A stretch of DNA of 37,507 nt from Deltaproteobacteria bacterium. GTDB taxonomy: Bacteria > Desulfobacterota > B13-G15 > RBG-16-54-18. A model generated the notes under the pieces. It had not been told where the DNA came from. It saw nothing but the letters and a program-made list of their open reading frames with translations, and made no database searches. This document shows, piece after piece, positions 22,523-37,507 of this stretch. Location of the stretch: contig DAOVGN010000057.1 of assembly GCA_030672385.1 (NCBI GenBank), positions 1 through 37,507 on the forward strand. Direction: 5' to 3'. How positions within the stretch are numbered: position 1 is the stretch's first letter; the number at the start of each line of letters is the position of its first letter. A program made the position numbers and the translations under genes.

Positions 22523-25189
22523 CTAAGAAGTCGTGATCCTCCTCGGCTGTACGATCCGGGGGGCTATAAAGATCAAGAGTTCCTTTTTGTCCCTATCCTT
22601 CTTCTTCTTTTTAAATAGCCAGCCCAATAACGGGATTTTGTAAAAGACGGGGACCCCATGCACACTACCGGACTTTTCATAGGTATAGATCCCACCGATC
22701 ACCACTACCTCTCCATCCTTGACCAGGACCTCTGTCTGGGCCTCTTTTTTGTCGATGGCTGGTACACCCAGTACCGTATTGCTCCAGTCAGGGGTATCTT
22801 TAGAGATCTTGATCTCCATCCTTATGTGCCCATCAGCAGTCACATGGGGGGTGACAGTCAGTTTCAGGTTGGCCTCTATGAACTCGGTGGAGATCGTACC
22901 CTCCTCTGTATACTTCGGGTAGGGTATACGCAGACCCTGTTCTATATATGCCTCAGTATGATCCAGGGTAGTAACCCTGGGACTTGAGATCACCTGTCCG
23001 TCCCCTGTCTCCTCCAGGGCTGAAATCTTTACCTGCAGATATTTGGTATTTTTTATATTCGCAATTATCATTTCTATGGCACCACCATGGCCGCTACTTG
23101 CCCCAGCAGGTAGGTCCACCACAAAGTCTCCACTGCTGGCCCCCTTAGTCTCTACATTGACATTTTCTTTGGGAAAATCCTCCGTGATTTTCCCACCCCA
23201 CGATATTCCCAGCTCCCTGGCGAAGTTAGTGCTGGCCTCTATGACCTTCGCCTGGATCAAGATCTGAGGGGTCTGGGCATCCAGTTTTTGCACCAGGTCC
23301 TTCGCCTTTTCCACATTGGTTAGAATGTCCTTTACGATAAGGGTATTGGTGCGCTCATCCACGGTTACGGTCCCCCTGCCGCTCAGGAGGTCTTTGACCT
23401 TAGGGGCGAGTTCCGTAGCCGTGCTGTAGTTCACCGGTATCAATTCGGTGACAAGGGGTGCCAGCTCTTCGCTGGCCTTGGTAGCCGCTGCCCTCGCCAG
23501 TTTATCTTTTTGCAACCTCTCCAGGGGGGCTATTCGGATGACGTTGCCTATCATCTCCATCCCCAAGTTGTTCGCCTGCAGGATGACATCTAGTGCCTGA
23601 TCCCAAGGGACATCTACCAATCTGATGGTGACCTTTCCCTTTACATCCTCGGTGGTGATGATATTCAGGTTGCTCACCTCTGCAAAGAGCCGCAGTATGT
23701 TATCGATGTCTGCGTCCTTGAAATCCAGGGTGACCTTCTTCCCTGTATAGACCTTTTGTGCCACCCTCTCAGGGAGGGTGGCAACCGGCACAACCTTCGG
23801 CACCGGCGCTGGAGGGGCAACCTCCTCCTTTTTCACCTCTGCAGGTTTCTCCACCACTTTTACCTCAGGGGGCTTTTTGACGGTGACCACCTCAACAGGT
23901 TTGGGTTTTTCTACCCTAAATTCTTCAGGCCTCGCAAAATCGAGATAGATCCTGCTGTCCTCCTGCTGGACATCAAAGGCCACCATCTTGCACAACTTCA
24001 CAAGGATTCGGGCACTCTTTTGGTCATCAAGCACAATATTACTGGGGGTGATCATCACCACAGGGCTGGCGAATTCATGGGTATCTAAAGGTCTGGTAAG
24101 CTTTGAGGGGACAATCATTCCCTTTACCTCTACCAGCACCGTATCCTCTGGTCCCTTCACCACATCATAGGGGGCCTTCGCCGAGGTGCAGATAATAATC
24201 CTCGATTTATCCTTCAGCTGCTTAAAGTCTATCCCGGTGATCTCTCCCGTCACAGGTACTGCAGGAGGAACCTTTTCCTCCTTGACAACCTCCTTTTGGG
24301 GCGCAGGAACAGGAGGAACAGGGACCTCTGCCTTCACCTCCTTCCCCAACACGACCCTCAACTCATCACCGACGCGATCGATCCTGTGGGCAGGGAGTGC
24401 CTTGGTTGGAATATCGAGGACCACTCTGACCTTCTTGGGGTGATCTCCTAAACGCACCTTTTTCAGAAAAGGGGAATCGACCAAGACCGCCCTCGAAGGA
24501 AATTTTCTCTTTATCTTCCACAGATCAATTACCAAACGTGTCGGCTTCTGCAGAGCAAAGGTATTGTAATCTCCCACCCTTCCGTCTGTCTTCAAACTCA
24601 AGATCACTTTATCTTTTTGGGACTTATCTGCATAGACGCCGACTAAACTCTGAGCAGGAGCCATTTCTTTTGGGACAACTTTCTCCTTTACTGGTGGAGG
24701 GGCCTCTTCAATGATCTCTATTTCCTTCTTTTTCTCCTCTTCCCTGGCAATAAGAGGGCCCCGTTTACCAACGTCTATGTAGAGGAGGGGGCCTTCCTTT
24801 TGGACTTGATATCTGACTAGTTTATTCAGACATATACAGATCTTGGCATTCCCTTCCTGTTGAGTGGCAACGATCTCCTTTATTACATCATCACCAACCG
24901 TTATGGGGGTGGAGACTCCTTCAGCCAACTCCGTTTGTGGGATATCGATCACCAGCTTCAACGGTTGGGGGATGAGCTTAAAGAACGTATACACCAGAGG
25001 GGATTCCCCCTCGATGATCACTCTCTTGCCCTCATCCCTGTCTACTACCTCTATATTCTTAATGAAATTTTGGGGGACGGCTTTCGGCAAGGGTTGTACC
25101 TTTTCACGGGGGGCACAACCCATTACCAATAAGATAATGGAGATCACCACTACTCCACAGCACCCCTTCTTCTTATTAAGGCTCTTCAT
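22523..25189 (-). CDS. pilQ: type IV pilus secretin PilQ (lipoprotein signal, AMIN repeats)
   Basis: Lipobox LVMGC; AMIN repeats; TLDFKDADI, VPWDQAL, VDERTN, ELGISWGG, KIPLLGWLFK, ELLIFIAPRI. Confidence 0.97.
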   Translation of the reverse strand: MKSLNKKKGCCGVVVISIILLVMGCAPREKVQPLPKAVPQNFIKNIEVVDRDEGKRVIIEGESPLVYTFFKLIPQPLKLVIDIPQTELAEGVSTPITVGDDVIKEIVATQQEGNAKICICLNKLVRYQVQKEGPLLYIDVGKRGPLIAREEEKKKEIEIIEEAPPPVKEKVVPKEMAPAQSLVGVYADKSQKDKVILSLKTDGRVGDYNTFALQKPTRLVIDLWKIKRKFPSRAVLVDSPFLKKVRLGDHPKKVRVVLDIPTKALPAHRIDRVGDELRVVLGKEVKAEVPVPPVPAPQKEVVKEEKVPPAVPVTGEITGIDFKQLKDKSRIIICTSAKAPYDVVKGPEDTVLVEVKGMIVPSKLTRPLDTHEFASPVVMITPSNIVLDDQKSARILVKLCKMVAFDVQQEDSRIYLDFARPEEFRVEKPKPVEVVTVKKPPEVKVVEKPAEVKKEEVAPPAPVPKVVPVATLPERVAQKVYTGKKVTLDFKDADIDNILRLFAEVSNLNIITTEDVKGKVTIRLVDVPWDQALDVILQANNLGMEMIGNVIRIAPLERLQKDKLARAAATKASEELAPLVTELIPVNYSTATELAPKVKDLLSGRGTVTVDERTNTLIVKDILTNVEKAKDLVQKLDAQTPQILIQAKVIEASTNFARELGISWGGKITEDFPKENVNVETKGASSGDFVVDLPAGASSGHGGAIEMIIANIKNTKYLQVKISALEETGDGQVISSPRVTTLDHTEAYIEQGLRIPYPKYTEEGTISTEFIEANLKLTVTPHVTADGHIRMEIKISKDTPDWSNTVLGVPAIDKKEAQTEVLVKDGEVVVIGGIYTYEKSGSVHGVPVFYKIPLLGWLFKKKKKDRDKKELLIFIAPRIVQPRRITTS

Positions 25190-25785
25190 AGTTTTTCCCC
25201 CTCCCCAGGGACATGTAATCTCAAAAGGATCTCCTTTGACCTGATATTGCCCAAATAATCTTTATACCGCTCCTCTATGATTACACTGTCTTTGAGGATT
25301 TTTTTCACTTTGCCGAAGTTTCTCCCGATATATGTCCCCTTCTCGACGATATAACCTTTCCCCTCAGAATCCTCCACCATCGCCCTTCCCTCTGTTTTTC
25401 CCACCAGGATGGCCACCAGTTTCAGTTGACTGAGGTCATATTTCTGCAGGGGGGTGAGGGATATCTGTTCCCCGGAGGGTTTTACAGGGGTTTGCATGGC
25501 GATGAATGGCTGAAAGGGGTCCCTCTTGCCTGTGGGATCGTAGACATAATGGCGCTTTTCCTCCTTTTGCTGCAAGGGCGATGTAGAGGTCGCCGGTGCC
25601 GGTGTGGGGACACTTGGTGAGGGTTTTCGGGATTTGGGTGCCAGCATAACCTTTTCCCGACCCTCTTCTTTTTTGCTATCGGTGCGGGGTGACCTGTCGC
25701 ATCCCCCCAGGATAAGGGCGATACCGATAATCAAGATGAGGGCGCAAGGCCCTTTTGACCTTCTTTCTCTAACCATTTTCACCAC
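25186..25785 (-). CDS. pilP: type IV pilus lipoprotein PilP
   Basis: Lipobox LGGC; YDPTGKRDPF, PLQKYDLSQLKLVAI; position in pilMNOPQ. Confidence 0.93.
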   Translation of the reverse strand: MVKMVRERRSKGPCALILIIGIALILGGCDRSPRTDSKKEEGREKVMLAPKSRKPSPSVPTPAPATSTSPLQQKEEKRHYVYDPTGKRDPFQPFIAMQTPVKPSGEQISLTPLQKYDLSQLKLVAILVGKTEGRAMVEDSEGKGYIVEKGTYIGRNFGKVKKILKDSVIIEERYKDYLGNIRSKEILLRLHVPGEGEKL

Positions 25786-25787
25786 GC

Positions 25788-26381
25788 CTATTTCTTCTTG
25801 GCTCCCTCAACCTTTTCCAAATATCTATAAGTTGTGGCAACGCATGAGGTACTCAACAGGATCTCCCCCTTTTTCTTTGCGGGGGCCTTTACGAGAGAGA
25901 ACTGCGCGATGTTTACTATGCGCGAAAGGGTGCCCACATGATAAAAGAACATCCCTATCTTGTGATACGACCCCACAAACTTTAATTCCACGGGGACCTT
26001 AGCATAAAATTGCCCAGGCTGCTCCCCCTGAGGTTTAAACAAAAGTAATTCCAAGCCAGCCTCTTTGCCCAGATTGGATATGTTCTTCAACAGGTTGGGA
26101 ATCTCCCTTTTGTCCGGCAACTTGCTTAAGGCCTCCCTTAGATCCTCGCTCATCCTCCCCAACTCCTCCTTAAACTTGTCAAAGTCCTTGGCGATGTTGC
26201 TCTTTATATTTTTTTCTCTAATAAGGTCATTCAACTTCGATTCCTTGGCTTCAATCCGCCTTGTCTGCGGAAGGTGAAAGGCGTACACGTAGGTCCCTAA
26301 GATGGCCGCTGAGATCAGCAAGAGGATACCTACTTTTTGCGGTGTAGGTAACTTGATGATGGTGTCCAGAGAGACTGCCAT
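25788..26381 (-). CDS. pilO: type IV pilus assembly protein PilO
   Basis: TM; LPDKREIPNLL, FYAKVPV, GSYH, RIVNI, TYRY. Confidence 0.95.
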   Translation of the reverse strand: MAVSLDTIIKLPTPQKVGILLLISAAILGTYVYAFHLPQTRRIEAKESKLNDLIREKNIKSNIAKDFDKFKEELGRMSEDLREALSKLPDKREIPNLLKNISNLGKEAGLELLLFKPQGEQPGQFYAKVPVELKFVGSYHKIGMFFYHVGTLSRIVNIAQFSLVKAPAKKKGEILLSTSCVATTYRYLEKVEGAKKK

Positions 26382-26391
26382 GGGATCCTCC

Positions 26392-26931
26392 TTAAAGGGA
26401 AGTTGAACAGAGCAAACTAAACTTTTTTAGCCTGAGACCTCCCCTCACAAATTGTTCTGTCACCTCCAGTTCTACCCCGCCGAAATATCTGGAGCGCTCT
26501 AATAGGGTCATGAAATTAGCGATAGTCTCATTGTCCAACGCTACACCTACAATCTTCAGCTTCTTTCCATTCTTATCCAAGCTCTCGATCCACATCTTCT
26601 CCGGTATACTCTGGCTCAGTTCGTCTAGTACACATACCGCACTTAACCTTCCCGCTTCCAAATTATTGATGATAGTTAACTTTTTCTGAAGCTTGGCCTT
26701 TTTCTCCTTTAACTTGTCTATCTCACCCACCACCTCATTTATCTTAGTTATCTCTTCCTTGACCAAGTGCAATTGGGCATCAACACGTTTCTCGCGCTGC
26801 TTTGTAGACCAGTTAAGATAAGCGACAGCCACAAAGGTCAAAAAGAGGACGAGGATTAAGATGGAGGTCTGAAATCGAAGGGTTTCCTTTTTCCTCGCCT
26901 CCCGTACAGGTAGTAAGTTTATCTCTATCAT
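26392..26931 (-). CDS. pilN: type IV pilus assembly protein PilN
   Basis: INLLP motif, TM, coiled coil. Confidence 0.95.
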   Translation of the reverse strand: MIEINLLPVREARKKETLRFQTSILILVLFLTFVAVAYLNWSTKQREKRVDAQLHLVKEEITKINEVVGEIDKLKEKKAKLQKKLTIINNLEAGRLSAVCVLDELSQSIPEKMWIESLDKNGKKLKIVGVALDNETIANFMTLLERSRYFGGVELEVTEQFVRGGLRLKKFSLLCSTSL

Positions 26932-26934
26932 TTC

Positions 26935-27993
26935 TTATATCTTCCTTAAGGCCAACCCTACACCTACGGCCATTAAGGGGCCGATATCCTTTAAATACTC
27001 AGGATCAAAGGCTCGCAGGTTGACCGCTATGTTTGCAAATGGATTGATGATCTCTACTGGCAAATTAAGCCTCTCTCCCACAATCTGTTTTAATCGGGGG
27101 ACCTTGGAGCAGCCACCACCAAGGTAGATGCGAGCTATCCTCTCTTCGGGGAAAGTTGCGGTAAAGAAATCCAAAGACTTGGCTATCTCCAAGGCAATGG
27201 TGGAAGAGGTCTTGTCAAGCACCCTATCGATGGTATGCGGCGTTCCTTTATCCGATACACCACCTAATTTCAAGCCTTCAGCCTCCTCAAAATTTACGCT
27301 TAGCTCCTTTTGGATCTCTTCTGTGTAAAGATTCCCCCCGGTGGAGATATCCCTTGTGAAGAGGGACCTCCCCCCCTTAACGATATTGAGGTTCATTATG
27401 CTGGCTCCAACGTCACATAAGACCACCAAATCTCCTATCTCCAAGGGATAATTTAGTTCGTACATATTCTCCAGGGCAAAAGAATCTATGTCAATAATCG
27501 TGGGACTCAACCCTGCTTCCTTGACGACGGCGACATAATCTTCGATAAAATCTTTCTTGGCGGCAACGAGAAGGACTTCCATATGTTCCCCCATCTCCTT
27601 TTCCGGGGTTGATAATATTTGAAAGTCAATGTTCACATCATTTATGTCAAAGGGGATATACCGCTCTGCTTCCACTAGGACATTCTCCTCTAGCTCCGAT
27701 TCCGTCATCTTGGTGAGGGTGATCTTCTTCACGATTACCGAATGGCCGGACACAGAGACGGCCACCTCCCGCTTTTGAATCTTATAATTAGAGGCCAATT
27801 CCCTTATCGCCTCCACCACTGTTGTGGAATCCATCAAGCTCCCATCCACGATGGTCTCTGGAGGCAGGGGGTTTAGGCCTATGTTGTTGAGTTGGTAGCC
27901 TTTCCCTGTATCCTTGATGTTCACAAATTTGATGGCGCTGGTACCTATGTCCAGCCCTAGTACCTGTTTCCCTTTACTTGTAAAGAGTCCCAT
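26935..27993 (-). CDS. pilM: type IV pilus actin-like protein PilM
   Basis: GLDIGTSAIK, YIPF, IDIDSFALEN, DVGA, AVGVGLALR. Confidence 0.97.
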   Translation of the reverse strand: MGLFTSKGKQVLGLDIGTSAIKFVNIKDTGKGYQLNNIGLNPLPPETIVDGSLMDSTTVVEAIRELASNYKIQKREVAVSVSGHSVIVKKITLTKMTESELEENVLVEAERYIPFDINDVNIDFQILSTPEKEMGEHMEVLLVAAKKDFIEDYVAVVKEAGLSPTIIDIDSFALENMYELNYPLEIGDLVVLCDVGASIMNLNIVKGGRSLFTRDISTGGNLYTEEIQKELSVNFEEAEGLKLGGVSDKGTPHTIDRVLDKTSSTIALEIAKSLDFFTATFPEERIARIYLGGGCSKVPRLKQIVGERLNLPVEIINPFANIAVNLRAFDPEYLKDIGPLMAVGVGLALRKI

Positions 27994-28084: not shown

Positions 28085-29473
28085 TCAAGGATTTAATCTA
28101 TAGCGGTTCAACTTCTCCCTCAAGGTTGAACGGGAGATCCCTAAAACCCTGGCCGTCTCCGATTTGTTCCCCCTTTTCTCTTGCAGCACCTTTAGGATGT
28201 ATCTGCGTTCCACTGCGGCCAGAGGGCTGAACCCATCCACATTATCCACCCATTTCTCTCCTAGGGAGGAGGCCCTTTCCACTTTATTCCTCCTCAATTC
28301 AAGGGGGAGGTCTTCAGGGGCAATTAGATCTCCTCTAGCCAAGATCATAGCCCTTTCAATGACATTTTTCAGTTCTCGCACATTTCCCGGCCAAGAATAG
28401 GCCAGTAGGAGATCGAGGGCCTCATCGGTAACACTTCTTATCTCCTTTCCTAATTCCCTTCCTATCTTCTTGTTGAAATACTGTGTGAAAGTGGGTATAT
28501 CCTCCTTCCTATCGCGTAGAGGAGGTAAATCTATCACCATTACCTTGATGCGGTAATAAAGATCTTTGCGAAATTCCCCTGTCTCCACCAATTGAGCCAG
28601 CTCCTTATTGGTAGAGGTAATTACCCTTACATCCATTTTAATGTCTCTTTCCCCCCCTACTCTCCTGAGAAGATAAGTTTCTAAAAATCTCAGTAATTTC
28701 GGCTGAAGGGAGGGTTTCATCTCTGAGATCTCATCCAAAAAGACCGTCCCCCCTTGAGCTAATTCTATGAGGCCCGGCCTGTTCTCCTTGGCATCGGTAA
28801 AGGCACCTTTCTCATAACCGAAGAGCTCGGATTCCAGCAAAGCCTCAGGGATAGCGCTACAATTTATCTTAATGATGGGCTTTTGTCTTCGTCGGCTTTG
28901 ATAGTGGATGGCGTTAGCCACCAATTCCTTTCCTGTACCACTTTCACCCTGAATTAAGACAGGAGTTCGTGGGGTCTGACTTATCAAGGAGATAAGTTCC
29001 CTCACCACGTCCATCTGAGGGCTTACCCCATAGATCTCTTCCTCCTCTTCTTTATCCCTGTGTTTATAACGCAATCTGAGGAGCTCCCCCCTTAGTTCCT
29101 TGGTCTCCAAGGCCTTCTTGACCGCCAACCGCAATTCGTCTATCTCAAATGGCTTATTTATATAATCATAGGCTCCGGCCTTCATGGCTGCAACCACCGT
29201 TTGCACATCGGCATAGGCAGTCATCATGATAACAAGGGGATCGCTATCTATTTCCCTAATCTCCTTCAGTATGTCAAAACCGTCCATATCCGGGAGCTTT
29301 ATATCCAACAGGATGAGATCGAAGACCATCTTCCGGAGGCAATAAAGGGCATCTTCACCCTTCTGGGCAGAGGCCACTTCACAAGACATCTTTTCCAAGA
29401 CCTCTGATAGGGTGCGACACATCACCTCGTCATCATCAACAATGAGTATATTAGGCTTGACTTCCATCATCAA
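28085..29473 (-). CDS. sigma54-dependent response regulator (NtrC/AtoC family)
   Basis: REC domain; GESGTGKE, ESELFG, GAFTDA, LDEI, WPGNVRELKN, Fis HTH. Confidence 0.95.
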   Translation of the reverse strand: MMMEVKPNILIVDDDEVMCRTLSEVLEKMSCEVASAQKGEDALYCLRKMVFDLILLDIKLPDMDGFDILKEIREIDSDPLVIMMTAYADVQTVVAAMKAGAYDYINKPFEIDELRLAVKKALETKELRGELLRLRYKHRDKEEEEEIYGVSPQMDVVRELISLISQTPRTPVLIQGESGTGKELVANAIHYQSRRRQKPIIKINCSAIPEALLESELFGYEKGAFTDAKENRPGLIELAQGGTVFLDEISEMKPSLQPKLLRFLETYLLRRVGGERDIKMDVRVITSTNKELAQLVETGEFRKDLYYRIKVMVIDLPPLRDRKEDIPTFTQYFNKKIGRELGKEIRSVTDEALDLLLAYSWPGNVRELKNVIERAMILARGDLIAPEDLPLELRRNKVERASSLGEKWVDNVDGFSPLAAVERRYILKVLQEKRGNKSETARVLGISRSTLREKLNRYRLNP

Positions 29474-30527
29474 TCTTTACCGGGAGGTCTAGAATGAACG
29501 TAGAACCATTCCCCTGGGAACTCTCCACTTCAATCTTCCCTCCATGTCCCTCTACTATCTTATGGGTTATGGAGAGGCCTAATCCTAATCCCTTACTCTT
29601 AGTGGTAAAGAAGGGATCAAAGATTTTGGGGAGATGTTCGGGCTTTATCCCCACACCAGTATCCTTAACCTTGACCTGAATCCATCCTCTTGGTAGATTC
29701 CTTCTTTTTATCTCCACTGTCAATTTCCCTCCAGCTGACATAGACTGGAGGGCGTTGAGGAAAAGATTCATAAATACCTGCTGCATCTGATTAAAATCCA
29801 GGGGGATGGGCGGCAAACCATTGCCATATATCTCTTTGATTTTAATCCCTCTATTTTCTGCCTCCTTCGCCAAAAGACCCTTTACCTCTTTAATAAGATC
29901 CTGGATCTGACAAGGAGCAAGGTTAAGGTGTTTGGGCTTGGCAAAGGAAAAAAAGGTGCGCAACAGATCGTTGAGCCTGTCGATTTCTTTAATGATCCTA
30001 TCGAGATACTCCTTCCTAGGGTCATCGTTACCCAACTCTTCATTTAAGGCTTGGGCGGTGGTCTTGATTCCAGCCAGAGGGTTTCTTATCTCGTGGGCCA
30101 AGGTGGAGGAGAACTCCCCCAAATATGCCAATCGATCCATCTTCACTATCTCTCCATGCATCTTATAGACATGGGTCATATCCTGCAAACTTGCCACCTT
30201 TCCCCTCTCTCTCCCCAGATAGTCGTGATATGGAAAGATCGATAGCTTTAAGGGGGTGTTTTCCTTTCCCTTTTGGAAAAATATTGTTCCATCTCCCCCT
30301 TTCCCTCCCAGACTTTCATTTCCTTGTGACAAAAGGCTTAGAAGACGTTTGCCCAAGAGGAGATCTCCTTTTTTCCCCAGGATCTCCTCTGATGCCTTAT
30401 TGGCAAAGATGATTTTTTCCCCCCTGTCCAACAGAATCACCCCTGTCTCAATTCCATCTAAGATCCCTTTTACAAAGGGGCCAGGTCTTTCTACACTCCT
30501 GGATTTCTCGTTACTTTTAACAACCAA
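29451..30527 (-). CDS. cytoplasmic PAS-domain histidine kinase
   Basis: N-terminal PAS-like region, H-box AHEIRNPL, N-box, DTGVGI, FDPFFTTK, GLGLGL; no TM; TTG start after GGAGGG. Confidence 0.92.
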   Translation of the reverse strand: MVVKSNEKSRSVERPGPFVKGILDGIETGVILLDRGEKIIFANKASEEILGKKGDLLLGKRLLSLLSQGNESLGGKGGDGTIFFQKGKENTPLKLSIFPYHDYLGRERGKVASLQDMTHVYKMHGEIVKMDRLAYLGEFSSTLAHEIRNPLAGIKTTAQALNEELGNDDPRKEYLDRIIKEIDRLNDLLRTFFSFAKPKHLNLAPCQIQDLIKEVKGLLAKEAENRGIKIKEIYGNGLPPIPLDFNQMQQVFMNLFLNALQSMSAGGKLTVEIKRRNLPRGWIQVKVKDTGVGIKPEHLPKIFDPFFTTKSKGLGLGLSITHKIVEGHGGKIEVESSQGNGSTFILDLPVKIDDGSQA

Positions 30528-30545
30528 GGAATCGGTCCCTCCGGT

Positions 30546-31823
30546 TTACAATGATATTTGCTCCACATCGAGAATCCATACCCCCCCCTTCCCTGATACC
30601 CCTTTCCCTAAAATGTAGGGTTTCCCCTCTATGGGGTGGTATTCGATCTCCTCTCGGGATATGGCTTGGTCTACGATAACTGCTGCCGTGCGGTCCTCTC
30701 TTCCCCTTACAATGAGTATAAGGGGTTTTTCTTCTGTCGATGGTCTAAGTTTGAACACCTGAAAGAGATTCAAAAGGGGTATTTCCATTTCCTTTAACTT
30801 AACTCTTCCGCTCTTGATGAAAAAATCAGCCACCCATTTTTTTACCAGGAAGCTCTTCAATATCTGGTTGTCGGGAAGACCAAAGACAACACCCGAGGCT
30901 CCGAAGAGTGAGACGGCCATCGTTGGTACCTTTGCGGGTTCCTGTATAGCGATATCTGATGGTGAATACGATCCCCTCTCTAACCTCCCATTTAAATCTG
31001 CTATCTCTTCTCCCCCCCCTTCCAGTTCCCCTCTAAATTCTTCCCCAGACCCAAATTGCCTCTGCAGCTCTGTCTTATAGGAGGTTATTGCCTGGTGGAT
31101 ATTCCCCAATCTCTTATTCTCCTCCTTGACCGCTTTTTCCAATTCCTCGATTCTGTCTATTAATCTCTTTATTCCTTCAAAAGATGTCTTTTTTTCCTCA
31201 GGAGGTTTCTGGGTTACTATCTCTTCCCCTCCCATCTCTCGTATCTCTACTTTCTTCTCCTTTGGAGCCTTTTCCTCTATTCCCAGTCTCTGAAACTCCG
31301 CCTTTAACTCCTTCACCAAGGCAACTTTATCGATCTCAAAAGAAAACCGCTCATCAGTCATCCCTTTAGCGACCTTCCAAGACTTTTGCAAGAACTTTAA
31401 GGCAGTGGGGTTAAGTTTGCTTTCATCTAAGAGGAGTTGATAAAGTACCTTTTGTATCAGAATTATAACAATCTCTAATTCATCAACCCCATGGGGAAGC
31501 CTTCTTAGATCTTGGAGGAGGGTTAAGGCCCTGTTTATGTGTTTGGAGCTGATATCCCATTCCAAGGTCAACAATTGTGCCTCTACTTCCTCCAGCTTTT
31601 CCTGAAGCGCACGGGAGGCCAACCCCCTCTCTTGTGTCGGAGGTGCTGTTGGGGAAGGATAATCTCTGTTCGCTGCCCTCACCTCTTTGTAAGGGGCATG
31701 AACTCCTTTAGGCTGGGTGACCGGATTTGCCTGACCTTCTTTTTCTACAAATAGAGTATCTACAGCGGCCTCTATATCTCTTTCTAGATCCGATAAGTCC
31801 CAACTATTATCTTTATCATTCAT
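30546..31823 (-). CDS. uncharacterised coiled-coil protein with a C-terminal CheW-like domain
   Basis: Acidic N-terminal helix, helical/coiled-coil middle, C-terminal VFGLP..QI, IPLLNL, AVIVDQ, ILDVEQI pattern typical of the CheW fold; start overlaps the mglA stop. Confidence 0.65.
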   Translation of the reverse strand: MNDKDNSWDLSDLERDIEAAVDTLFVEKEGQANPVTQPKGVHAPYKEVRAANRDYPSPTAPPTQERGLASRALQEKLEEVEAQLLTLEWDISSKHINRALTLLQDLRRLPHGVDELEIVIILIQKVLYQLLLDESKLNPTALKFLQKSWKVAKGMTDERFSFEIDKVALVKELKAEFQRLGIEEKAPKEKKVEIREMGGEEIVTQKPPEEKKTSFEGIKRLIDRIEELEKAVKEENKRLGNIHQAITSYKTELQRQFGSGEEFRGELEGGGEEIADLNGRLERGSYSPSDIAIQEPAKVPTMAVSLFGASGVVFGLPDNQILKSFLVKKWVADFFIKSGRVKLKEMEIPLLNLFQVFKLRPSTEEKPLILIVRGREDRTAAVIVDQAISREEIEYHPIEGKPYILGKGVSGKGGVWILDVEQISL

Positions 31824-32443
31824 TAAAATTGCCTATCTGCTAGTGTTTTTTTGCTCACATCCTTAACCACCAATTTGCTTATCTCCCTCAGGGTTTCAAA
31901 AACCCCTTGCCCCTTGAGGGCACTGGCAGGGAAAGAAGGTACCTTTAGATAAGAGTTGAGATCCCTCTCCATTTCTGCGATGGTTAGCACAGGTATATTA
32001 CTCCCCTCCAAGTCCCTTTTATTGTATTGCATGATCAAGGGTAGATTGGTGACGTCTAATCCCCTCTCTTTGAGATTATAGGCCAAATTTTCCAAGCTCT
32101 CAATGTTCTTTTCCCTCTGCACCCGCATAGAATCAGCCACAAATACCATTCCATCAACCCCTCTTAAGACCAGTTTTCTCGTAGCGTCGTAATGCACCTG
32201 TCCTGGTACAGTGTAAAGTTGCACTCTGATCGCAAAATCCCTGATTCTACCTAAATTAAGGGACAAAAAATCAAAAAATAGTGTTCTATCACCCTTTGTG
32301 TCTATAGAGACCAATTGCCCCCTTATATCATTATTAGTGCTGTCATAGACAAACCTCAAATTAGTGGTCTTTCCCCCGAGACCAGGACCATAATATACGA
32401 CTTTGCAGTGGATCTCTCCTGAACTAAAATTGATGAAGGCCAT
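31823..32443 (-). CDS. mglA: small Ras-like GTPase MglA
   Basis: MAFINFSSGEIHCKVVYYGPGLGGKTTNL, DRTLFFDF, LYTVPGQV, FVADS, QYNKRD, GVFETL. Confidence 0.95.
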   Translation of the reverse strand: MAFINFSSGEIHCKVVYYGPGLGGKTTNLRFVYDSTNNDIRGQLVSIDTKGDRTLFFDFLSLNLGRIRDFAIRVQLYTVPGQVHYDATRKLVLRGVDGMVFVADSMRVQREKNIESLENLAYNLKERGLDVTNLPLIMQYNKRDLEGSNIPVLTIAEMERDLNSYLKVPSFPASALKGQGVFETLREISKLVVKDVSKKTLADRQF

Positions 32444-32456
32444 TATTTATATTGAA

Positions 32457-32870
32457 CTACTCCCCTCTATTCCTCTCTAAGATCTCCCTGAAGATATTAC
32501 GCAATTCATGTATCACTTTTTCTGTTCTCAATCTTACCAGCCCTAAGGTGGTCCGGTCATCAAATAATGTCACCATGATAAATTCTGTGCCGATCTTAGA
32601 AAAATGTACATTCTCATTTTTCCCTTTGTGGAAGAGAAGGGCAAATTCGTCTTCTCCCAGAAGTCTCGCTATCTCTGAAGTGGCACCAAAATTGGCTGCG
32701 GTTAGGGCGGAAAGGGCGATGACATCCAACGTTGAGGGGTCACCGCTGGAGGCGATCAGCTGTCCCGACCTATCGATTAATAGGGCACAATGGGCCCCAG
32801 AACTGCTTAACATCTTGTCAAGGCACCTCTCAATCTTGACAAGATCTTGATCAGAAAGGATGAGATTCAT
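32457..32870 (-). CDS. mglB: roadblock/LC7 protein MglB (GAP of MglA)
   Basis: LLIDRSGQLI, LSALTAANFGAT..IARLLGEDEF..LFH.G, FDDRTTLGLVRL; directly upstream of mglA. Confidence 0.93.
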   Translation of the reverse strand: MNLILSDQDLVKIERCLDKMLSSSGAHCALLIDRSGQLIASSGDPSTLDVIALSALTAANFGATSEIARLLGEDEFALLFHKGKNENVHFSKIGTEFIMVTLFDDRTTLGLVRLRTEKVIHELRNIFREILERNRGE

Positions 32871-32929
32871 TTCCTACCTCGTTTGCTGGTTTATGGATGT
32901 ACAATTTTAGCCCATATATTTTTGTAATC

Positions 32930-32958
32930 TCTATAGCATTTTACATGCTTTATGTAAA
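32930..32958 (-). promoter_or_regulatory. internal promoter for mglB-mglA with an overlapping palindrome
   Basis: Minus strand TTTACA-17 bp-(TGn)TATAGA; inverted repeat TTTACAT-GCTTT-ATGTAAA (32940-32958). Confidence 0.45.
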
Positions 32959-32993
32959 GAAAGGATGTTCATAAATCAATCAGTGGTCAAAAA

Positions 32994-34016
32994 TCAAGGG
33001 CCGAAAATTTCCGGCATGCTCGATTTCAAGCCAAGATCTTCTATCCTCCCGCTATACTTTTCAATGGTAGATCGCAGTGTAAAGTTTATCCTTGTGTGCA
33101 ATTCATCCTTGGTGATCTTCAAGGGCGCCTTTTCCAAAGTCAGGTCTATACAATCCTTTATCCCTCGGAGAAACTCCTCCAAGGGCACCTTCCCCCAAAA
33201 TTTTATCTCTCCATTCTCATACTCAAATTCGGCTACAAATGGATCGAGGAACGGATAGTCCTCGGATTTTTCCACCTGAGCTCTTTTGAAACCCTCGCGG
33301 AAGGATCCTTTTTGTGTGGTCAGGCCATCCACCAAGCCCTCAATAATATCCATAACCTCTTGTATCACCTCTATGGCCCCTTGCAGGTCTCTGGTTTGAG
33401 CTATCTCCGTCCGTTCAGCCCCCCTCTCCAACAGGCCAGCGCGATATACATTAAAGCTTGCACCAATCTTTTGGGCGTCATCTATTACCTTGGACAATAT
33501 CTCCTTGCCATACATCGTTTTATTTCCTGCACCAGACATGGCAACCTCTAAAATCTCTCCTTCTTGTAAAAAAACAACCCCCTTGCCTTTGTCGCCAGTT
33601 AAAACTATATCGATGTATCCTGAATGTTTTTCCTTGCTCAGCTTTTCTACTAATTTATCCAAGCTGGTGAACTCCGTGGACAAATTTTTGTATATTGCTT
33701 CTTCCGTAGATGTGCTGGCCAAAATGGTCACCATCTCTGGGGCCAATCTATGGACATTGATCCTTCCATCCTTTTGCTTGGACATGAGGATGATATTCTC
33801 TACTGCATCTTCCCCTACCCTTCTCGTACCTTGCGTCTCTTCGATAGCATTCACTATCTCTCCAGCCTCCAAAAACAGGACCCCTTCATGATCCCAAGAG
33901 GAGAGTTGCACGTAACCGTCGAAGTCATCCTCTTTTAACGATTGGAGAAAACTGTTGAGATCGACAAAAGAGGTCCTCAGATTGTCATAAACCGCTTCTC
34001 CTTTTGGTAAGATCAT
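32994..34016 (-). CDS. protein with two tandem PATAN/DUF4388-DUF2226-like repeats
   Basis: Internal repeat: EAVYDNLRTSFVDLNSFLQSLKEDDFDGYVQL..GVLFLEAGEI vs EAIYKNLSTEFTSLDKLVEKLSKEKHSGYIDI..GVVFLQEGEI; followed by a helical C-terminal domain. Confidence 0.7.
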   Translation of the reverse strand: MILPKGEAVYDNLRTSFVDLNSFLQSLKEDDFDGYVQLSSWDHEGVLFLEAGEIVNAIEETQGTRRVGEDAVENIILMSKQKDGRINVHRLAPEMVTILASTSTEEAIYKNLSTEFTSLDKLVEKLSKEKHSGYIDIVLTGDKGKGVVFLQEGEILEVAMSGAGNKTMYGKEILSKVIDDAQKIGASFNVYRAGLLERGAERTEIAQTRDLQGAIEVIQEVMDIIEGLVDGLTTQKGSFREGFKRAQVEKSEDYPFLDPFVAEFEYENGEIKFWGKVPLEEFLRGIKDCIDLTLEKAPLKITKDELHTRINFTLRSTIEKYSGRIEDLGLKSSMPEIFGP

Positions 34017-34047
34017 ATGTAAAACCTCCTCTTTCTTTATTAGGACA

Positions 34048-35172
34048 TTAAACTTGGAACTTGGTTGGTTTCTGCTCTAAGATATTTCTGGCCCTAGAAT
34101 AAAACTCATCAGCGGTGGTATTATTCAACAGTGTGACCATCAGAAAGAGGTAATTGTACCTCATGATGATAGATTGATTATTTTTGTGCCCGAGATTTAT
34201 CCTCAATAGTTGATGGTTCCCCACGGATTTTTCCAACCTGGCAGCCATGGTGGACAATAGCGAGGGGATTAAGGCGTCCTTTTCGTTAAAATCTTGATCA
34301 TTGATGGTCAATACCCTTCCTTTTTCGTTGACCCACATCCCCTTTTCATAGCCGTTAATACTGGCCAACATCTTCAACAATCGTTCCAGCAATTCTTTCG
34401 TTTCGATCTTTTTGTCGAGATCCTCAAATGCCTTCTCTACCTCCTGCAGTAAGACCGAGCTATCTCTGTCTTCTGTGACAGTGCTTTCATCCCTTCTTCT
34501 CATACCCTCCAACAGGAGGTGTTCCCAACGGTCCGTTATAGTCTCTTTGGGGATTGGAACTCCCATCTGAGAGATGAACCTCCCATCTTTCCAGCTCAGC
34601 ATGGTGTACAGGGCTTCTTCTCCCTCCAGGTCCCCTATTTTCGCATGAACGATCTCGCCGTTCCTGAAATAGATCATACCCTCTTCATCACCCCTGGAGA
34701 CGGCGATTGACATGCTAAACCTGCCCAAACATCCCATCTGGATGACATCAACGAGTTGCAGGTCGAGGACTTGACCTACAAAACCACCCCTCTCCTCCTC
34801 AAGGGCCTTAAGGATAATGTTCCTGATATCAGATATCTCAAAAGGTTTCTCGATGTAATGGTATGAACCTCTCTTGGTAGCCTCTTCTTGGACTTCCGGT
34901 GATCCGTAGGCCGTCATGATGATTACCTTGGTCCACGGATACTCTTCCCTTATCTTTGACAGTAAATCGAGTCCATTGATGTCTGGCATCCTTATGTCTG
35001 TTACCACCACATCGATACGAGATTTTTGTAGGGTCTGAAGGGCCTCTGTTCCTGTATTGGTGCTGATGAGCTCATATTTATCTCTATCTTTGGCCAAGGT
35101 TTTGGTCATACTCCAAGTCAGGGTCTCTTCATCGTCCACTACGAGGACCTTCCTTGTCTCTTTTTCTGCCAT
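34048..35172 (-). CDS. response regulator: REC + DUF4388/PATAN + C-terminal roadblock-like domain
   Basis: VLVVDDE, TDIRMP, MTAYG, KPF; then GFVGQV..LQLVDVIQM..GMIYFRNGEIVHA..GEEALY.MLSW..G.F..LLLEGMRRRDE; ATG at 35172. Confidence 0.85.
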   Translation of the reverse strand: MAEKETRKVLVVDDEETLTWSMTKTLAKDRDKYELISTNTGTEALQTLQKSRIDVVVTDIRMPDINGLDLLSKIREEYPWTKVIIMTAYGSPEVQEEATKRGSYHYIEKPFEISDIRNIILKALEEERGGFVGQVLDLQLVDVIQMGCLGRFSMSIAVSRGDEEGMIYFRNGEIVHAKIGDLEGEEALYTMLSWKDGRFISQMGVPIPKETITDRWEHLLLEGMRRRDESTVTEDRDSSVLLQEVEKAFEDLDKKIETKELLERLLKMLASINGYEKGMWVNEKGRVLTINDQDFNEKDALIPSLLSTMAARLEKSVGNHQLLRINLGHKNNQSIIMRYNYLFLMVTLLNNTTADEFYSRARNILEQKPTKFQV

Positions 35173-35318
35173 TTCTTGTACCTCAGGAATCAAGGTTTTG
35201 CTTTTTCCTTCATTGAAAGGAAAAGAGTGTGTGACAGCAGCCAACGACTAATGAGTTTGCCAAATATTAAATCTCCCATTTTCCTTGTGCTAACCTTTGG
35301 ATAACTCGCCTTAAAAGG

Positions 35319-36188
35319 TCACCATCCCTTGACCTTTTTCTGATACTGCTCCAGGTAATTGGCCGGCACTGGAACAAAACGCCTTATATTGTTGGTCCTC
35401 AAGACTGGGTGGCCAACGGGAATATTCAACAGGGCTTCCTGAACCATCTTTTTTGCCTTTGCTGGCAATTTTTTATTTGCGCTGAAGACCCAGTTGGGGG
35501 TTCCCTCGGTATGGGCGATGATCTGTATATCCTTCGTTTCTCCTGGGGATAGTAAGCCCTTGCTCTCTATCCTCCCCAAGGTCTCTCCAGAAATAAAGCC
35601 TGCGTCAGCCTTTTTTTGTATCACATCGAAGACGACGCTCTCCGCTTTGTTCTCCTTCGCTTCAACAATAGTGAAGTCGACATATATAACCAGTCCTCTT
35701 TCTGCCAAGAAGATTCTTTGGGCGATGAATCCCCCCGCACTGTGCAGTGAGACGACGCTTATTTTCTTTCCCTTCAGGTCCTCTATTTTTTTTATTCCGC
35801 TGTCCTTCCTGGTGATAATTATCCCTCTGGACTCAACCCCCCCCTCTTTCCCTTTCTCGGTCAACGTAAGGGGGGAACTGGCCTCCCATACCTCAATAAA
35901 GACATAGGGATTTTGATATGAGAAGTCCACCTCCCCTCTTTTTACCATTTCAATATGTTGCTCAAAGGAACGTGGGATGACGAGCTCGAACCGAACACCC
36001 AAGGTATCCTCTAAATAAGTCATCAAGGGGTTTAGCCTCTGCCACATCTCAATGCGTAGATATTCAGGGACGACGGCAATCTTATAAGTTTCTTCTGCCA
36101 GCAGGGGCTGTTGAAAAACGACATGGGAAAATATCGAAAATATGAAAATTACAAGAACAATAAGGAGCCTTTTCCTCTCCTTAGTCAC
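35319..36188 (-). CDS. PhnD-like (phosphate/phosphonate-type) periplasmic substrate-binding protein
   Basis: Signal peptide; PL.TYL..TLG, G.VDF...NP, RGIIITRKDSGI..IEDLKGK, S.GG, V..DV....ADAGF. Confidence 0.85.
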   Translation of the reverse strand: MTKERKRLLIVLVIFIFSIFSHVVFQQPLLAEETYKIAVVPEYLRIEMWQRLNPLMTYLEDTLGVRFELVIPRSFEQHIEMVKRGEVDFSYQNPYVFIEVWEASSPLTLTEKGKEGGVESRGIIITRKDSGIKKIEDLKGKKISVVSLHSAGGFIAQRIFLAERGLVIYVDFTIVEAKENKAESVVFDVIQKKADAGFISGETLGRIESKGLLSPGETKDIQIIAHTEGTPNWVFSANKKLPAKAKKMVQEALLNIPVGHPVLRTNNIRRFVPVPANYLEQYQKKVKGW

Positions 36189-36193
36189 TGAAC

Positions 36194-37063
36194 TTATCTC
36201 CCTCTCAACCTCTCGATGGCGGCTTTGAGGCTTATCTGCATCCTCCGTAATGCCTCAGCCAACACCCTAATTTCGTCCTTCGTCTTCACCTCTATACTCG
36301 CCCCCAGATCCCCAACGCTTATCCGATCGGCTACCTTGGCCAAATGTAGAAGGGGCTTCGTAATCCGCCGTGAGAAAGAGATCGCCGCGATTAACGCCAC
36401 AAGCAGCGCAACGACGCCCACGATACCGATAGCTACCATTTGTCTTTGAGCTCCCTTCTTAAATGTTTCACTTAACCTCACGACAGGAGAACGAAATTCA
36501 TCTATATAAGTTGTGGCCGCAATGCCGTATCCGCTTCCCTCTACAGGGACACATACCATAAACTTGTCCCTTATCTTGCCATCAGGATCCTCCCATTTAT
36601 AATAACCCTTCGTAAAAGTACCCTCCAGATGGGGCTCTAGTATCCGCCAAAACTCAGGAAGCTTGGTGGCCAATTTGTGCAAATCCAGGTCCTCCACCTT
36701 GGGATTGATGTGAAAGCGGTTTATCCCTGTCTTCAGCTCATGAAGAGCCGTATAACCTGTCTGCCCTACCGGCTGTACTGCCAATTCCCTAAACTCGGGG
36801 TCCTCCCGCAGATCCTCCAAGGTGTAGTCGAGATGGGCCTCTAGATAAGCTGACACTTCCTCGGCCGCATCCTTGCCCACATCTTCTATGATCTGCTCTC
36901 CTACCTTTCCTAATACCTCATCTCCCTTTTGGGTGATCACCTCACTCATATCTTTTATTTCAGACAAAGAGACATACCCGACTATCCCCAAGGGGATAAC
37001 GGTGGCAATAATGGCCAAAATGGTCAATTTACCTAAGATCCCGAATCCGCCCATCTCTCTCAT
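36194..37063 (-). CDS. two-TM Cache-like/HAMP membrane receptor lacking an output domain
   Basis: TM1, extracytoplasmic region (QPVGQTGYTAL..RFHINP..GYYKWEDPDG..RDKFM), TM2, HAMP (ITKPLLHLAKVADRISVGDL..DEI..LAEALRRM), then stop after LKAAIERLRGR. Confidence 0.85.
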   Translation of the reverse strand: MREMGGFGILGKLTILAIIATVIPLGIVGYVSLSEIKDMSEVITQKGDEVLGKVGEQIIEDVGKDAAEEVSAYLEAHLDYTLEDLREDPEFRELAVQPVGQTGYTALHELKTGINRFHINPKVEDLDLHKLATKLPEFWRILEPHLEGTFTKGYYKWEDPDGKIRDKFMVCVPVEGSGYGIAATTYIDEFRSPVVRLSETFKKGAQRQMVAIGIVGVVALLVALIAAISFSRRITKPLLHLAKVADRISVGDLGASIEVKTKDEIRVLAEALRRMQISLKAAIERLRGR

Positions 37064-37507
37064 TCCCCCTTTTCTCTGATCTTTTAAGGTCTCCTCCTGA
37101 GCCTCTCGATGGCGGCTTTGAGGCTTGTCTGCATCCTCCGTACGGCCTCAGCCAACACTCCAATCTCATCCTTCGTCTTCACCTCTATACTTGCCCCCAG
37201 GTCCCCAACGCTTATCCGATCGGCCACCTTGGCTAGATGCAGAAGGGGCTTCGTAATCCGCCGTGAGAAAAATAAGCTGAGTCCCACAGCGAAAGGAACT
37301 GTGAAGATCAAGGTGATAAAAAATATCTTTACGGCCTTAATTTTAACAGAGTCAATATATCTGTAAATCCTGTCCCGGGGCAGGAGAAACTCATCTATAT
37401 AAGTTGTGGCCGCAATGCCGTATCCGCTTCCCTCTACAGGGACACATACCATAAACTTGTCCCTTATCTTGCCATCAGGATCCTCCCATTTATAATAACC
37501 CTTCGTA
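36498..37507. repeat. 117-bp exact direct repeat (36498-36614 = 37391-37507), part of an 893-bp-period tandem gene duplication
   Basis: Base-by-base identity from tcatctatataag to cttcgta; the HAMP-coding parts (about 36210-36378 and 37103-37271) are near-identical at the same 893-bp offset. Confidence 0.92.
37084..37507 (-). CDS. paralogous Cache-like/HAMP receptor (5'-truncated by the window edge)
   Basis: Frame is open to the window end (TKGYYKWEDPDGKIRDKFMVCVP...), with TM2 and HAMP, ending LKAAIERLRRRP. Confidence 0.85.
   Translation of the reverse strand, partial: TKGYYKWEDPDGKIRDKFMVCVPVEGSGYGIAATTYIDEFLLPRDRIYRYIDSVKIKAVKIFFITLIFTVPFAVGLSLFFSRRITKPLLHLAKVADRISVGDLGASIEVKTKDEIGVLAEAVRRMQTSLKAAIERLRRRP

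Follow-up and report, generated by a model that had tools for sequence, protein, structure and literature searches.

The 37,507-bp stretch of DNA from a Deltaproteobacteria bacterium that we have analysed (the window) carries a cluster of genes in which two membrane receptors with no output domain are encoded together with PATAN proteins, the Ras-like GTPase MglA, its neighbour MglB and the type IV pilus genes pilMNOPQ. We interpret the locus as the sensory part and the core of a supercluster for type IV pilus control, found repeatedly in Thermodesulfobacteriota, in which a signal may be relayed from receptor to MglA, and we put the probability of this reading at roughly one half. The domain identities, the roadblock fold, the homology of the receptors to Af1503 of Archaeoglobus fulgidus and the conserved gene linkage are established here, and the recurring grouping suggests what the output-less receptors may signal to. 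Each of the parts was known already, as MglAB/PATAN modules, as Af1503/STAC pairs and in the conservon; what is new is the junction with Af1503-type receptors and pilus genes.

The cluster comprises 15 tightly packed genes on the minus strand, running from position 37507 down to 22523 with intergenic gaps of −23 to 123 nt (Table 1). Domains are assigned from Pfam matches on the open reading frames of the window. The original prediction, made from the sequence, had described ten co-oriented genes with particular domains followed by pilMNOPQ, and all of these are found. Two of the genes, Rec1 and Rec2, encode the receptors. Rec2 is complete, with a first transmembrane segment, a Cache-like periplasmic domain, a second transmembrane segment and a HAMP domain, at which the chain terminates; the chain ends four residues past the HAMP match, with the start of the next gene 5 nt further on. 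Rec1 ends in the same way, in agreement with the earlier description of the receptors as output-less. It is a tandem paralogue of Rec2 (73% identity over 142 amino acids), with its N-terminus lost at the end of the contig. The Cache_3-Cache_2 match of Rec2 scores 18.5 bits, under the cut-off of 27.7, and homologues of Rec2 exceed the Cache cut-offs (dCache_2 40.3 bits and sCache_2 32.6 bits).

The profile of the receptor family aligns with engineered full-length AF1503 (4cq4) with an expectation value (E) of 3e-25 over profile positions 39–288, which include the sensor, the membrane segments and HAMP. Rec2 alone aligns with AF1503 at E = 9e-12, with the sensor motifs in register. From this homology Rec1 and Rec2 are assigned as receptors of the Af1503 family, a relationship that the original prediction had not recognized, with its published STAC partner Af1502. 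Af1503 was the source of the first HAMP structure and serves as a reference for models of transmembrane signalling; we know of no cellular output for it beyond the proposed link to transport. Passages of PMC4834066 describe Af1503-like receptors as an archaeal family in which HAMP is the sole cytosolic part, with no recognizable effector, and which is frequently coupled to short STAC proteins, Af1502 among them, that carry an LGPx(x)A motif. The same passages describe gene surroundings enriched in transporters, and propose that the receptors regulate solute transport via STAC. Af1503 is termed 'non-signaling' in a passage of PMC3585426.

Homologues of the receptors form 749 protein clusters, and the 120 that are listed are 212–390 amino acids in length with HAMP, Cache and zinc-ribbon as their only Pfam domains. 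There are at least 434 receptor loci in contigs taken from one genome per species. The best 80 of these were examined, and by their titles are mostly from Thermodesulfobacteriota, Syntrophorhabdus, Syntrophales or Desulfobacterales. Conservation across the family is highest in the periplasmic domain, with invariant AVQ.VG.TGYT, N.FH.NP, GYY.W.D and AATTY.DEF blocks. In Syntrophales the same Cache-like/HAMP sensor is also found fused to a SpoIIE (PP2C) phosphatase (L079:6065-8221, L092:9977-11659, L101:9959-11653 and L102; L numbers denote fetched loci, G000 the genome of the window and the other G numbers the genomes of relatives). An anti-sigma-type HATPase_c_2 kinase is encoded near the fusion in L101, where a PATAN neighbour is absent.

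The output-less receptors are generally encoded beside PATAN proteins. PATAN corresponds to Pfam DUF4388 (PF14332, cut-off 25 bits); PATAN262 denotes a gene like that of a 262-aa PATAN protein in the relatives, while REC-PATAN and PATAN2 are the two PATAN proteins of the window. A PATAN gene immediately adjoins the receptor in 61 of the 71 loci for which both flanks are present. Upstream, a PATAN262-type gene lies within 1.5 kb in 63 of the 76 loci with an upstream flank, and of 74 loci, 49 have PATAN2 or REC-PATAN as the gene directly downstream. Since there are only about five PATAN matches per genome this adjacency is far beyond chance. The remaining 10 loci comprise four with the SpoIIE fusion and six output-less orphans; as four of these ten exceptions have an output of their own, the PATAN neighbours accompany the output-less form of the receptor. 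The whole genome of the window has five Pfam matches to PATAN, a rarity that places the clustering at this locus, too, far above chance.

Of the 80 receptor loci examined, 21 contain MglA. Across 301 genomes sampled evenly from the phylum, 37 have the receptor and 174 have MglA, and in at least 13 of the 37 receptor-bearing genomes MglA lies within 5 kb of the receptor. The receptor, the PATAN proteins and MglAB are joined in at least four gene orders. In L031 and L034 a 145-aa gene is followed by PATAN262, the receptor, REC-PATAN, (PATAN2), MglB, MglA, the CheW-like protein, the histidine kinase, the NtrC-type activator and pilMNOPQ. L068 and 15 others have the order NtrC, histidine kinase, MglB, MglA, x, STAC-like, receptor, PATAN2, PAS, REC-PATAN, PilB-like. 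The order in L032 and L035 is PATAN262, receptor, PATAN2, MglA, CheW-like, pilMNOPQ, and in L121 it is MglB, MglA, PATAN2, PATAN262, receptor. In L032/L120 (10588-12474) and L035 mglA comes straight after the PATAN2-like gene, and mglB was not found in the locus. The linkage of receptors, PATAN proteins and mglAB extends well beyond this genome. The original prediction expected the receptor, PATAN, mglAB and PhnD-like binding protein genes to stay together elsewhere; the first three do so, and the PhnD-like gene is not conserved.

The core of the cluster was also compared in eight loci from relatives in the same family and order. Seven of these extend far enough to include the run MglB-MglA-CheW-like-pilMNOPQ, and all seven have it; PATAN2 occurs in every one of the eight and REC-PATAN in six. 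The pair of histidine kinase and NtrC-type activator is found within the family only, and the order-level relatives G014, G015 and G020 have no such pair in the cluster. The AmiC-like amidase gene that follows pilQ does so in six relatives' loci too (L017, L018, L019, L020, L021 and L023).

In REC-PATAN, alignment with the orthologues places the likely true start at the ATG near 35172. The receiver domain keeps the acidic pocket, D83, T111 and K133 in 11 of 11 orthologues, and phosphorylation of the protein is therefore plausible. Pfam finds no roadblock domain in the window protein, and finds Robl_LC7 in three of the 11 orthologues. Residues 262–398 (the last 137) were modelled from the alignment of the 11 orthologues with a predicted local distance difference test score (pLDDT) of 75.5. 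The modelled order of secondary structure is alpha-beta-beta-alpha-beta-beta-beta(-alpha), which is that of the roadblock/LC7 fold. Foldseek returned 154 matches with E ≤ 0.001 for this model, the top one being 7yh1 (E 2e-7, TM scores 0.74/0.87), and gave a probability of 1.00 to an Asgard roadblock, to LAMTOR2 of Ragulator and to MglB. On the basis of the model we assign the C-terminus as a roadblock fold, as the original prediction had proposed. An hhalign comparison of the REC-PATAN alignment with MglB alone (E 0.0054, probability 6.7%) is superseded by the fold result.

PATAN2 is a protein of 340 amino acids that contains two PATAN repeats, at approximately residues 7–102 and 109–192, and so is indeed the double-PATAN protein described at the outset. 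Residues 1–105 and 106–200 are 29% identical over 87 amino acids (E 6e-12), and in homologues the DUF4388 matches fall on the second repeat too. Among 33 homologues DUF4388 is matched in 26 and DUF2226 in 16. The C-terminal domain (residues 209–338) is helical and conserved, with a YPFLDPF motif. The model (pLDDT 86.1) has two similar alpha/beta units followed by a helical domain. In a Foldseek search of the PDB the best match had E 7e-3 with TM scores of 0.10–0.16, so that no known fold could be named, and the best Z of 6.3 in a wide VIA-align search is inside the stated noise of the tool. A complex predicted between two copies of the Rec2 HAMP domain (residues 226–289) and PATAN2 reached a score of 0.29, the mark being 0.32, which counts neither way.

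According to passages of a preprint (bioRxiv 10.1101/2021.06.11.447907), the PATAN domain of Synechocystis by itself binds PilB1 as well as PilC's N-terminal domain, and is sufficient for reversal of phototaxis. PATAN genes near mglA/mglB were noted earlier in a passage of PMC4316618 (citing Makarova 2006). A link from PATAN to the pilus is credible on these two grounds.

The PATAN262 protein of the relatives has a tail of ~78 amino acids; 32 of the 35 proteins compared have [LIMV]GPx(x)A in it, at the same place in the alignment. This STAC-like segment is fused to PATAN in 34 full-length proteins, and the 35th (L068) has no PATAN detectable by Pfam. When the profile of the tail was compared with the PDB there were four matches with E ≤ 10, of which Af1502 (5a1q) was the second at a weak E of 0.11, with ELKK.GPIA aligned; a passage of PMC4834066 states that Af1502 escapes sequence searches. 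The region that precedes the tail resembles a winged helix (E ~2e-3). The Atlas family of the tail is DUF8082, which elsewhere is fused to PatA_N. From these matches the tail is likely, but unproven, to be a STAC domain.

In the closest relative, G008, the last features of one contig are the 145-aa gene, PATAN262 and the N-terminus of the receptor, while a second contig opens with the C-terminus of the receptor and continues with the binding protein, REC-PATAN and onward. These contig ends, and the break at the receptor repeat in both assemblies, indicate that the missing genes are probably beyond the repeat, and the PATAN262/STAC-like gene of the window genome is probably located just past the contig end. 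The protein of 145–190 amino acids encoded before PATAN262 (L106:1046-1483, L017:4990-5427 and 10 others) matches Robl_LC7 in four of 12 cases at E ≤ 0.1, and has weak matches to roadblock structures in the PDB (E 0.05–0.09) over nearly the whole domain. Should this signal be genuine, the complete system would contain three roadblock proteins.

The match of MglA to the M. xanthus protein (5ymx) extends over residues 1–198, and T. thermophilus MglA (3t12) is matched at E 2e-56. The DRTLFFDF and YTVPGQ stretches are identical to those of M. xanthus, and presumably hold the intrinsic arginine, the catalytic glutamine and the threonine that replaces aspartate in the G3 motif. The mglB gene lies 13 nt upstream of mglA. 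Its product scores 70.3 bits against NCBIfam MglB (cut-off 200), and is 82–92% identical in the relatives.

The next gene encodes a protein whose conserved N-terminal LE.EID.AVD.LFVEK motif is followed by a proline-rich linker, a helical/coiled-coil region and, at the C-terminus, a CheW-like domain. The position of this gene is constant, between mglA and either the pil genes or the two-component pair. The CheW match rises to 45 bits in the L034 orthologue, and Atlas clusters contain CheW proteins of 430–465 amino acids from Thermodesulfobacteriota. The N-terminal motif, located at 31700-31823 in the window, is repeated in tandem in L034:13381-14961, and may be a short docking motif. In L022 (G008:C80, ~1179-1275) the CheW-like gene stops ~40 codons short of where the tblastn match ends, and a frameshift, a shorter protein or an error of assembly may account for this. 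The histidine kinase is soluble, with no membrane or periplasmic sensor, and the best NCBIfam match of the sigma54 activator is AtoC, under its cut-off. Neither an MCP (methyl-accepting chemotaxis protein) signalling domain nor CheA is present among the 15 open reading frames of the cluster, the part of the genome that was searched, where the CheW-like domain is the only component of this kind; the earlier expectation of a system with no canonical MCP/CheA agrees with this.

Two further proteins accompany related clusters. Those of Desulfobacterales type end with a 795-aa TPR-MshEN-T2SSE ATPase (L068:14857-17244) that is PilB-like, with an N-domain of the type that binds cyclic di-GMP. In Syntrophorhabdus-type loci a TPR protein follows the trio PATAN262-Rec-PATAN2 (L058:12289-13215). 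G000 has an 859-aa T2SSE frame on contig C93.

Between the receptors and REC-PATAN is the gene for a PhnD-like binding protein, the N-terminus of which is a signal or anchor. It scores 77.6 bits against the NCBIfam PhnD equivalog (cut-off 261); the nearest solved structures are PtxB (E 6e-15) and ArrX (E 9e-14), and NCBIfam aligns it to the sensor region of TtrS (E 3e-10). No permease or ATPase for it is present among the open reading frames of the window, as had been noted originally. A role as part of a complete phosphonate/phosphite ABC transporter was considered and rejected, given the score under the PhnD cut-off and a window that contains no permease or ATPase. The original prediction made the binding protein a part of the system, a view that does not extend to the wider family. 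It occurs in three of 22 genomes of the order (G000, G008 and G009, of three genera), always between receptor and REC-PATAN, and in none of the 80 best receptor loci, and is a recent, clade-limited insertion. A remnant of 118 amino acids (E 4e-12) is located between PATAN262 and REC-PATAN in L105 (G011:C125, ~1105-1452), where the receptor is absent, and there is a fainter trace in G010 (E 0.04).

A mechanism may be proposed for the receptor-to-MglA relay. The Cache-like domain would sense a periplasmic ligand, assisted in this clade by the orphan PtxB/ArrX-like binding protein, and the ligand would shift the HAMP bundle. The state of HAMP would be read in trans at the membrane by adaptors of the PATAN family, one of which in the relatives would be the PATAN/winged-helix/STAC-like protein encoded directly upstream of the receptor. 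The adaptors, with a roadblock platform of REC-PATAN-roadblock and MglB, might then set the nucleotide state or the location of MglA. MglA would act on the pilus machine, possibly via the CheW-like protein or through contacts between PATAN and the motor. The PAS kinase could provide a second input to the REC domain, and an effect on transcription via the sigma54 activator. That Af1503-type receptors are the front end of a STAC/PATAN–roadblock–MglA–pilus route, distinct from both two-component and chemosensory signalling, is a tentative and somewhat doubtful proposal.

A number of observations weigh against the relay. MglA is found in only eight of the 36 receptor loci that have at least 9 kb on both sides. 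The 80 loci were those of highest similarity, and many of them are closely related, so that counts taken from them overstate independence. In G173, G109 and G260, which belong to one family, the receptor module is on a different contig from the MglAB-pil module (REC-PATAN/MglB/MglA/CheW-like/HK/NtrC/pilMNOPQ, where HK is the histidine kinase). G001, G004, G010 and G011 keep the MglAB-pil cluster and PATAN262, with the 145-aa gene, PATAN262 and REC-PATAN side by side, and the receptor is absent there; this loss of receptor and binding protein in sister genera indicates that the receptor input is modular, dispensable and optional. The receptor homologues of G015 (L025/L118 and L041) have no PATAN match in the single flank available. 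No PATAN262/STAC-like gene was found in G000, which is 93% complete, and the role put forward for Af1503-like receptors in passages of PMC4834066 is regulation of solute transport through STAC. The proposed passage of a signal from receptor through PATAN adaptors to MglA, as in the earlier interpretation, is supported in part; the recurring gene linkage speaks for it, and the losses in sister genera and the separation of the modules in one family speak against it.

Some of these observations would also fit a scheme in which, as in cyanobacteria, the pilus motor (PilB/PilC) is the direct target of the PATAN adaptors and the receptor steers pilus extension through them, with MglA/MglB a parallel polarity module that is merely co-encoded and the receptor uncoupled from the GTPase. 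The binding of PilB1 and PilC by the Synechocystis PATAN domain, and its reversal of phototaxis, are consistent with direct action (in passages of bioRxiv 10.1101/2021.06.11.447907), as are the ATPase that terminates the Desulfobacterales-type clusters (L068) and the 28 of 36 receptor-PATAN loci that have no MglA within 10 kb. However, one of the PATAN proteins is fused to a roadblock, a GTPase-binding fold in MglB and Ragulator, PATAN2 is directly before mglA in L032 and L035 in the usual place of mglB, and the linkage to MglAB recurs in four gene orders, and we consider direct action unlikely, while giving it appreciable weight. We also think it rather unlikely that the receptors and binding protein are an independent module beside the MglAB-pil cluster, for example one controlling solute transport in the manner of Af1503/STAC. 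The coupling of Af1503-like receptors to STAC in transporter-rich surroundings (passages of PMC4834066), the sister genera that lost the receptor and binding protein and kept the MglAB-pil cluster, and the similarity of the binding protein to those of transporters all point that way, but transporter genes are absent from the cluster, the immediate neighbours in 61 of 71 loci are PATAN proteins rather than transporters, the STAC-like segment is itself fused to PATAN in 34 full-length proteins, and the linkage to MglAB recurs in differing gene orders.

A split sensor kinase, in which the HAMP-only receptor controls the PAS kinase in trans and thereby the NtrC-type activator and REC-PATAN, would place PATAN and MglA downstream of phosphorylation only. 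The kinase has no membrane or periplasmic sensor of its own, the kinase-NtrC pair is present in both type I and type II clusters and the receiver of REC-PATAN keeps all phospho-acceptor residues. Yet the pair stays with MglAB, not with the receptor, where the modules are split or the receptor is lost, it is missing from the clusters of G014, G015 and G020, and known signalling from HAMP to DHp proceeds through a continuous helix; this arrangement seems improbable. Least probable of all are receptors that act as ligand-independent membrane or polar anchors recruiting the PATAN and roadblock proteins. An anchor would suit the term 'non-signaling' given to Af1503 in a passage of PMC3585426, and PatA-type regulators of Synechocystis stay membrane-bound when PilB1 or PilC is missing (bioRxiv 10.1101/2021.06.11.447907), which implies another membrane partner, but it would hardly explain why conservation in the receptor is highest in the periplasmic domain, with invariant blocks, why other proteins join this sensor to a SpoIIE output or why a binding protein was recruited beside the receptor in this clade.

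A receptor-to-MglA relay would share features with several known systems. The closest parallel for the receptors is Af1503/Af1502, with an extracellular sensor, a membrane segment and HAMP as sole cytosolic part, homology over the full-length profile and, in the relatives, an adjacent gene with a ~78-aa domain of LGPx(x)A type. The published family is archaeal and transporter-linked in passages of PMC4834066, whereas the receptors here are bacterial with PATAN, roadblock, MglAB and pil neighbours. In the relatives PATAN and the STAC-like segment form one protein; the window stops within Rec1 and shows no STAC gene. For the GTPase the parallel is M. xanthus, with a close MglA homologue, an adjacent MglB and neighbouring type IV pilus genes. 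MglAB of Myxococcus is likewise accompanied by a REC-containing regulator, RomR, and an extra roadblock protein, MglC. Homologues of RomR, RomX, SgmX and Frz were not identified in the cluster. The cluster has in their place PATAN proteins, membrane receptors and a coiled-coil protein with a CheW-like domain, and REC is joined to PATAN and a roadblock in one protein. MglA stimulates type IV pili through SgmX in Myxococcus, according to PMC7519303 and PMC7668184.

The cyanobacterial PatA-type regulators PixG, PixE and LsiR also combine PATAN and REC in one protein, and control type IV pili through a PATAN output that binds PilB1/PilC (bioRxiv 10.1101/2021.06.11.447907). They differ in that the order REC-PATAN is reversed here, a roadblock is added, there is linkage to MglAB and the inputs are not MCP/CheA or photoreceptors. 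The actinobacterial conservon (CvnA kinase, CvnB roadblock, CvnC and CvnD GTPase) shares a membrane sensor, a roadblock and a GTPase of the MglA family (passages of PMC4316618). Its sensor, CvnA, is a membrane histidine kinase with its own output, whereas the present kinase is soluble. The conservon lacks PATAN, a HAMP-only receptor and pil genes, and its GTPase falls into another MglA group. It has been likened to G-protein-coupled signalling. LuxP/LuxQ, TorT/TorS and the PhnD-like sensor domain of TtrS are comparable in having a binding protein encoded beside a membrane receptor; the receptor here differs from those of LuxP/LuxQ and TorT/TorS in having no kinase, and with the pairing seen in three genera only this is a candidate binding protein–receptor pair.

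A literature search returned no paper joining Af1503-type receptors with PATAN, roadblock, MglAB and pilus genes; the STAC paper (J Mol Biol 2015) and table S2 of PMC4316618 lay outside that search and may bear on the point. The search gave nothing linking the PATAN domain with HAMP or MglA with Cache plus HAMP, and nothing on DUF2226.

Table 1. Genes of the cluster and its downstream neighbour, in window coordinates.
Feature	Position	Strand	Description and evidence
Rec1	37084..37507	-	C-terminal 140 aa of Af1503-like receptor: end of sensor, second transmembrane segment, HAMP; HAMP 58.7 bits
Rec2	36194..37063	-	Complete 289-aa Af1503-like receptor; HAMP 54.8 bits
Orphan PhnD/PtxB-type periplasmic binding protein	35319..36188	-	Phosphonate-bd 170.6 bits
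REC-PATAN-roadblock	34048..35244	-	Response_reg 95 bits; DUF4388 77.3 bits; roadblock by model
PATAN2	32994..34016	-	DUF4388 40.3 bits, one match; second repeat by internal alignment
MglB, candidate GTPase-activating protein of MglA	32457..32870	-	Robl_LC7 45.5 bits (cut-off 23)
MglA, Ras-like GTPase	31823..32443	-	E 2e-67 to M. xanthus MglA
Coiled-coil/CheW-like protein	30546..31823	-	CheW 27.4 bits (cut-off 23.5)
Soluble PAS histidine kinase	29451..30527	-	HisKA 61.3, HATPase_c 98.9, PAS_8 28.9 bits
NtrC-type sigma54 activator (REC, AAA+, HTH_8)	28085..29473	-	Sigma54_activat 219.2 bits
pilM, pilN, pilO, pilP, pilQ	22523..27993	-	Pfam; secretin with AMIN domains
AmiC-like amidase	21252..22445	-	Downstream neighbour of pilQ, conserved

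The window is the whole of contig C63 of a 1.58-Mb metagenome-assembled genome of 104 contigs. Its other genes are housekeeping (RecJ, PyrD/K, RuvX, MltG-like and acyl-CoA enzymes). The stretch is present in four DNA runs of one marine-sediment study, and no RNA run is among the matches listed. The junction between Rec1 and Rec2 is spanned by contigs from two runs (X1 and X3) of one study, and the tandem pair is therefore not a binning artefact. Public contigs from the four runs break within the duplicated segments of the receptors, at window positions 36498-36848 and 37420-37507. In X1 and X3 the contig diverges from the window at 36848 (the X1 contig is 1556 nt), which may reflect a strain with another receptor N-terminus or other upstream genes. 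Matches to the sigma54 promoter pattern in the window are at chance level (12, with 12.3 expected), as are sigma70-like sites (24, with 20.7 expected) and terminator-like sites (19, with 21.2 expected), and for that reason we draw no inference on transcription units.

These gene neighbourhoods offer the Af1503-type receptor a concrete and testable candidate output in the PATAN/STAC-like adaptors, the roadblock proteins and MglA. For the MglA polarity switch they supply a candidate sensory input; outside Myxococcus little is known of the signals upstream of this switch. The comparison also defines a pilus-control gene set that is widespread in Thermodesulfobacteriota and whose bearers include syntrophs and sulfate reducers of sediments and digesters, organisms whose surface behaviour has been little studied. 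If true, a STAC/PATAN–roadblock–MglA route would explain why a textbook HAMP protein has no output of its own, and its logic would resemble that of Ragulator-Rag in eukaryotes.

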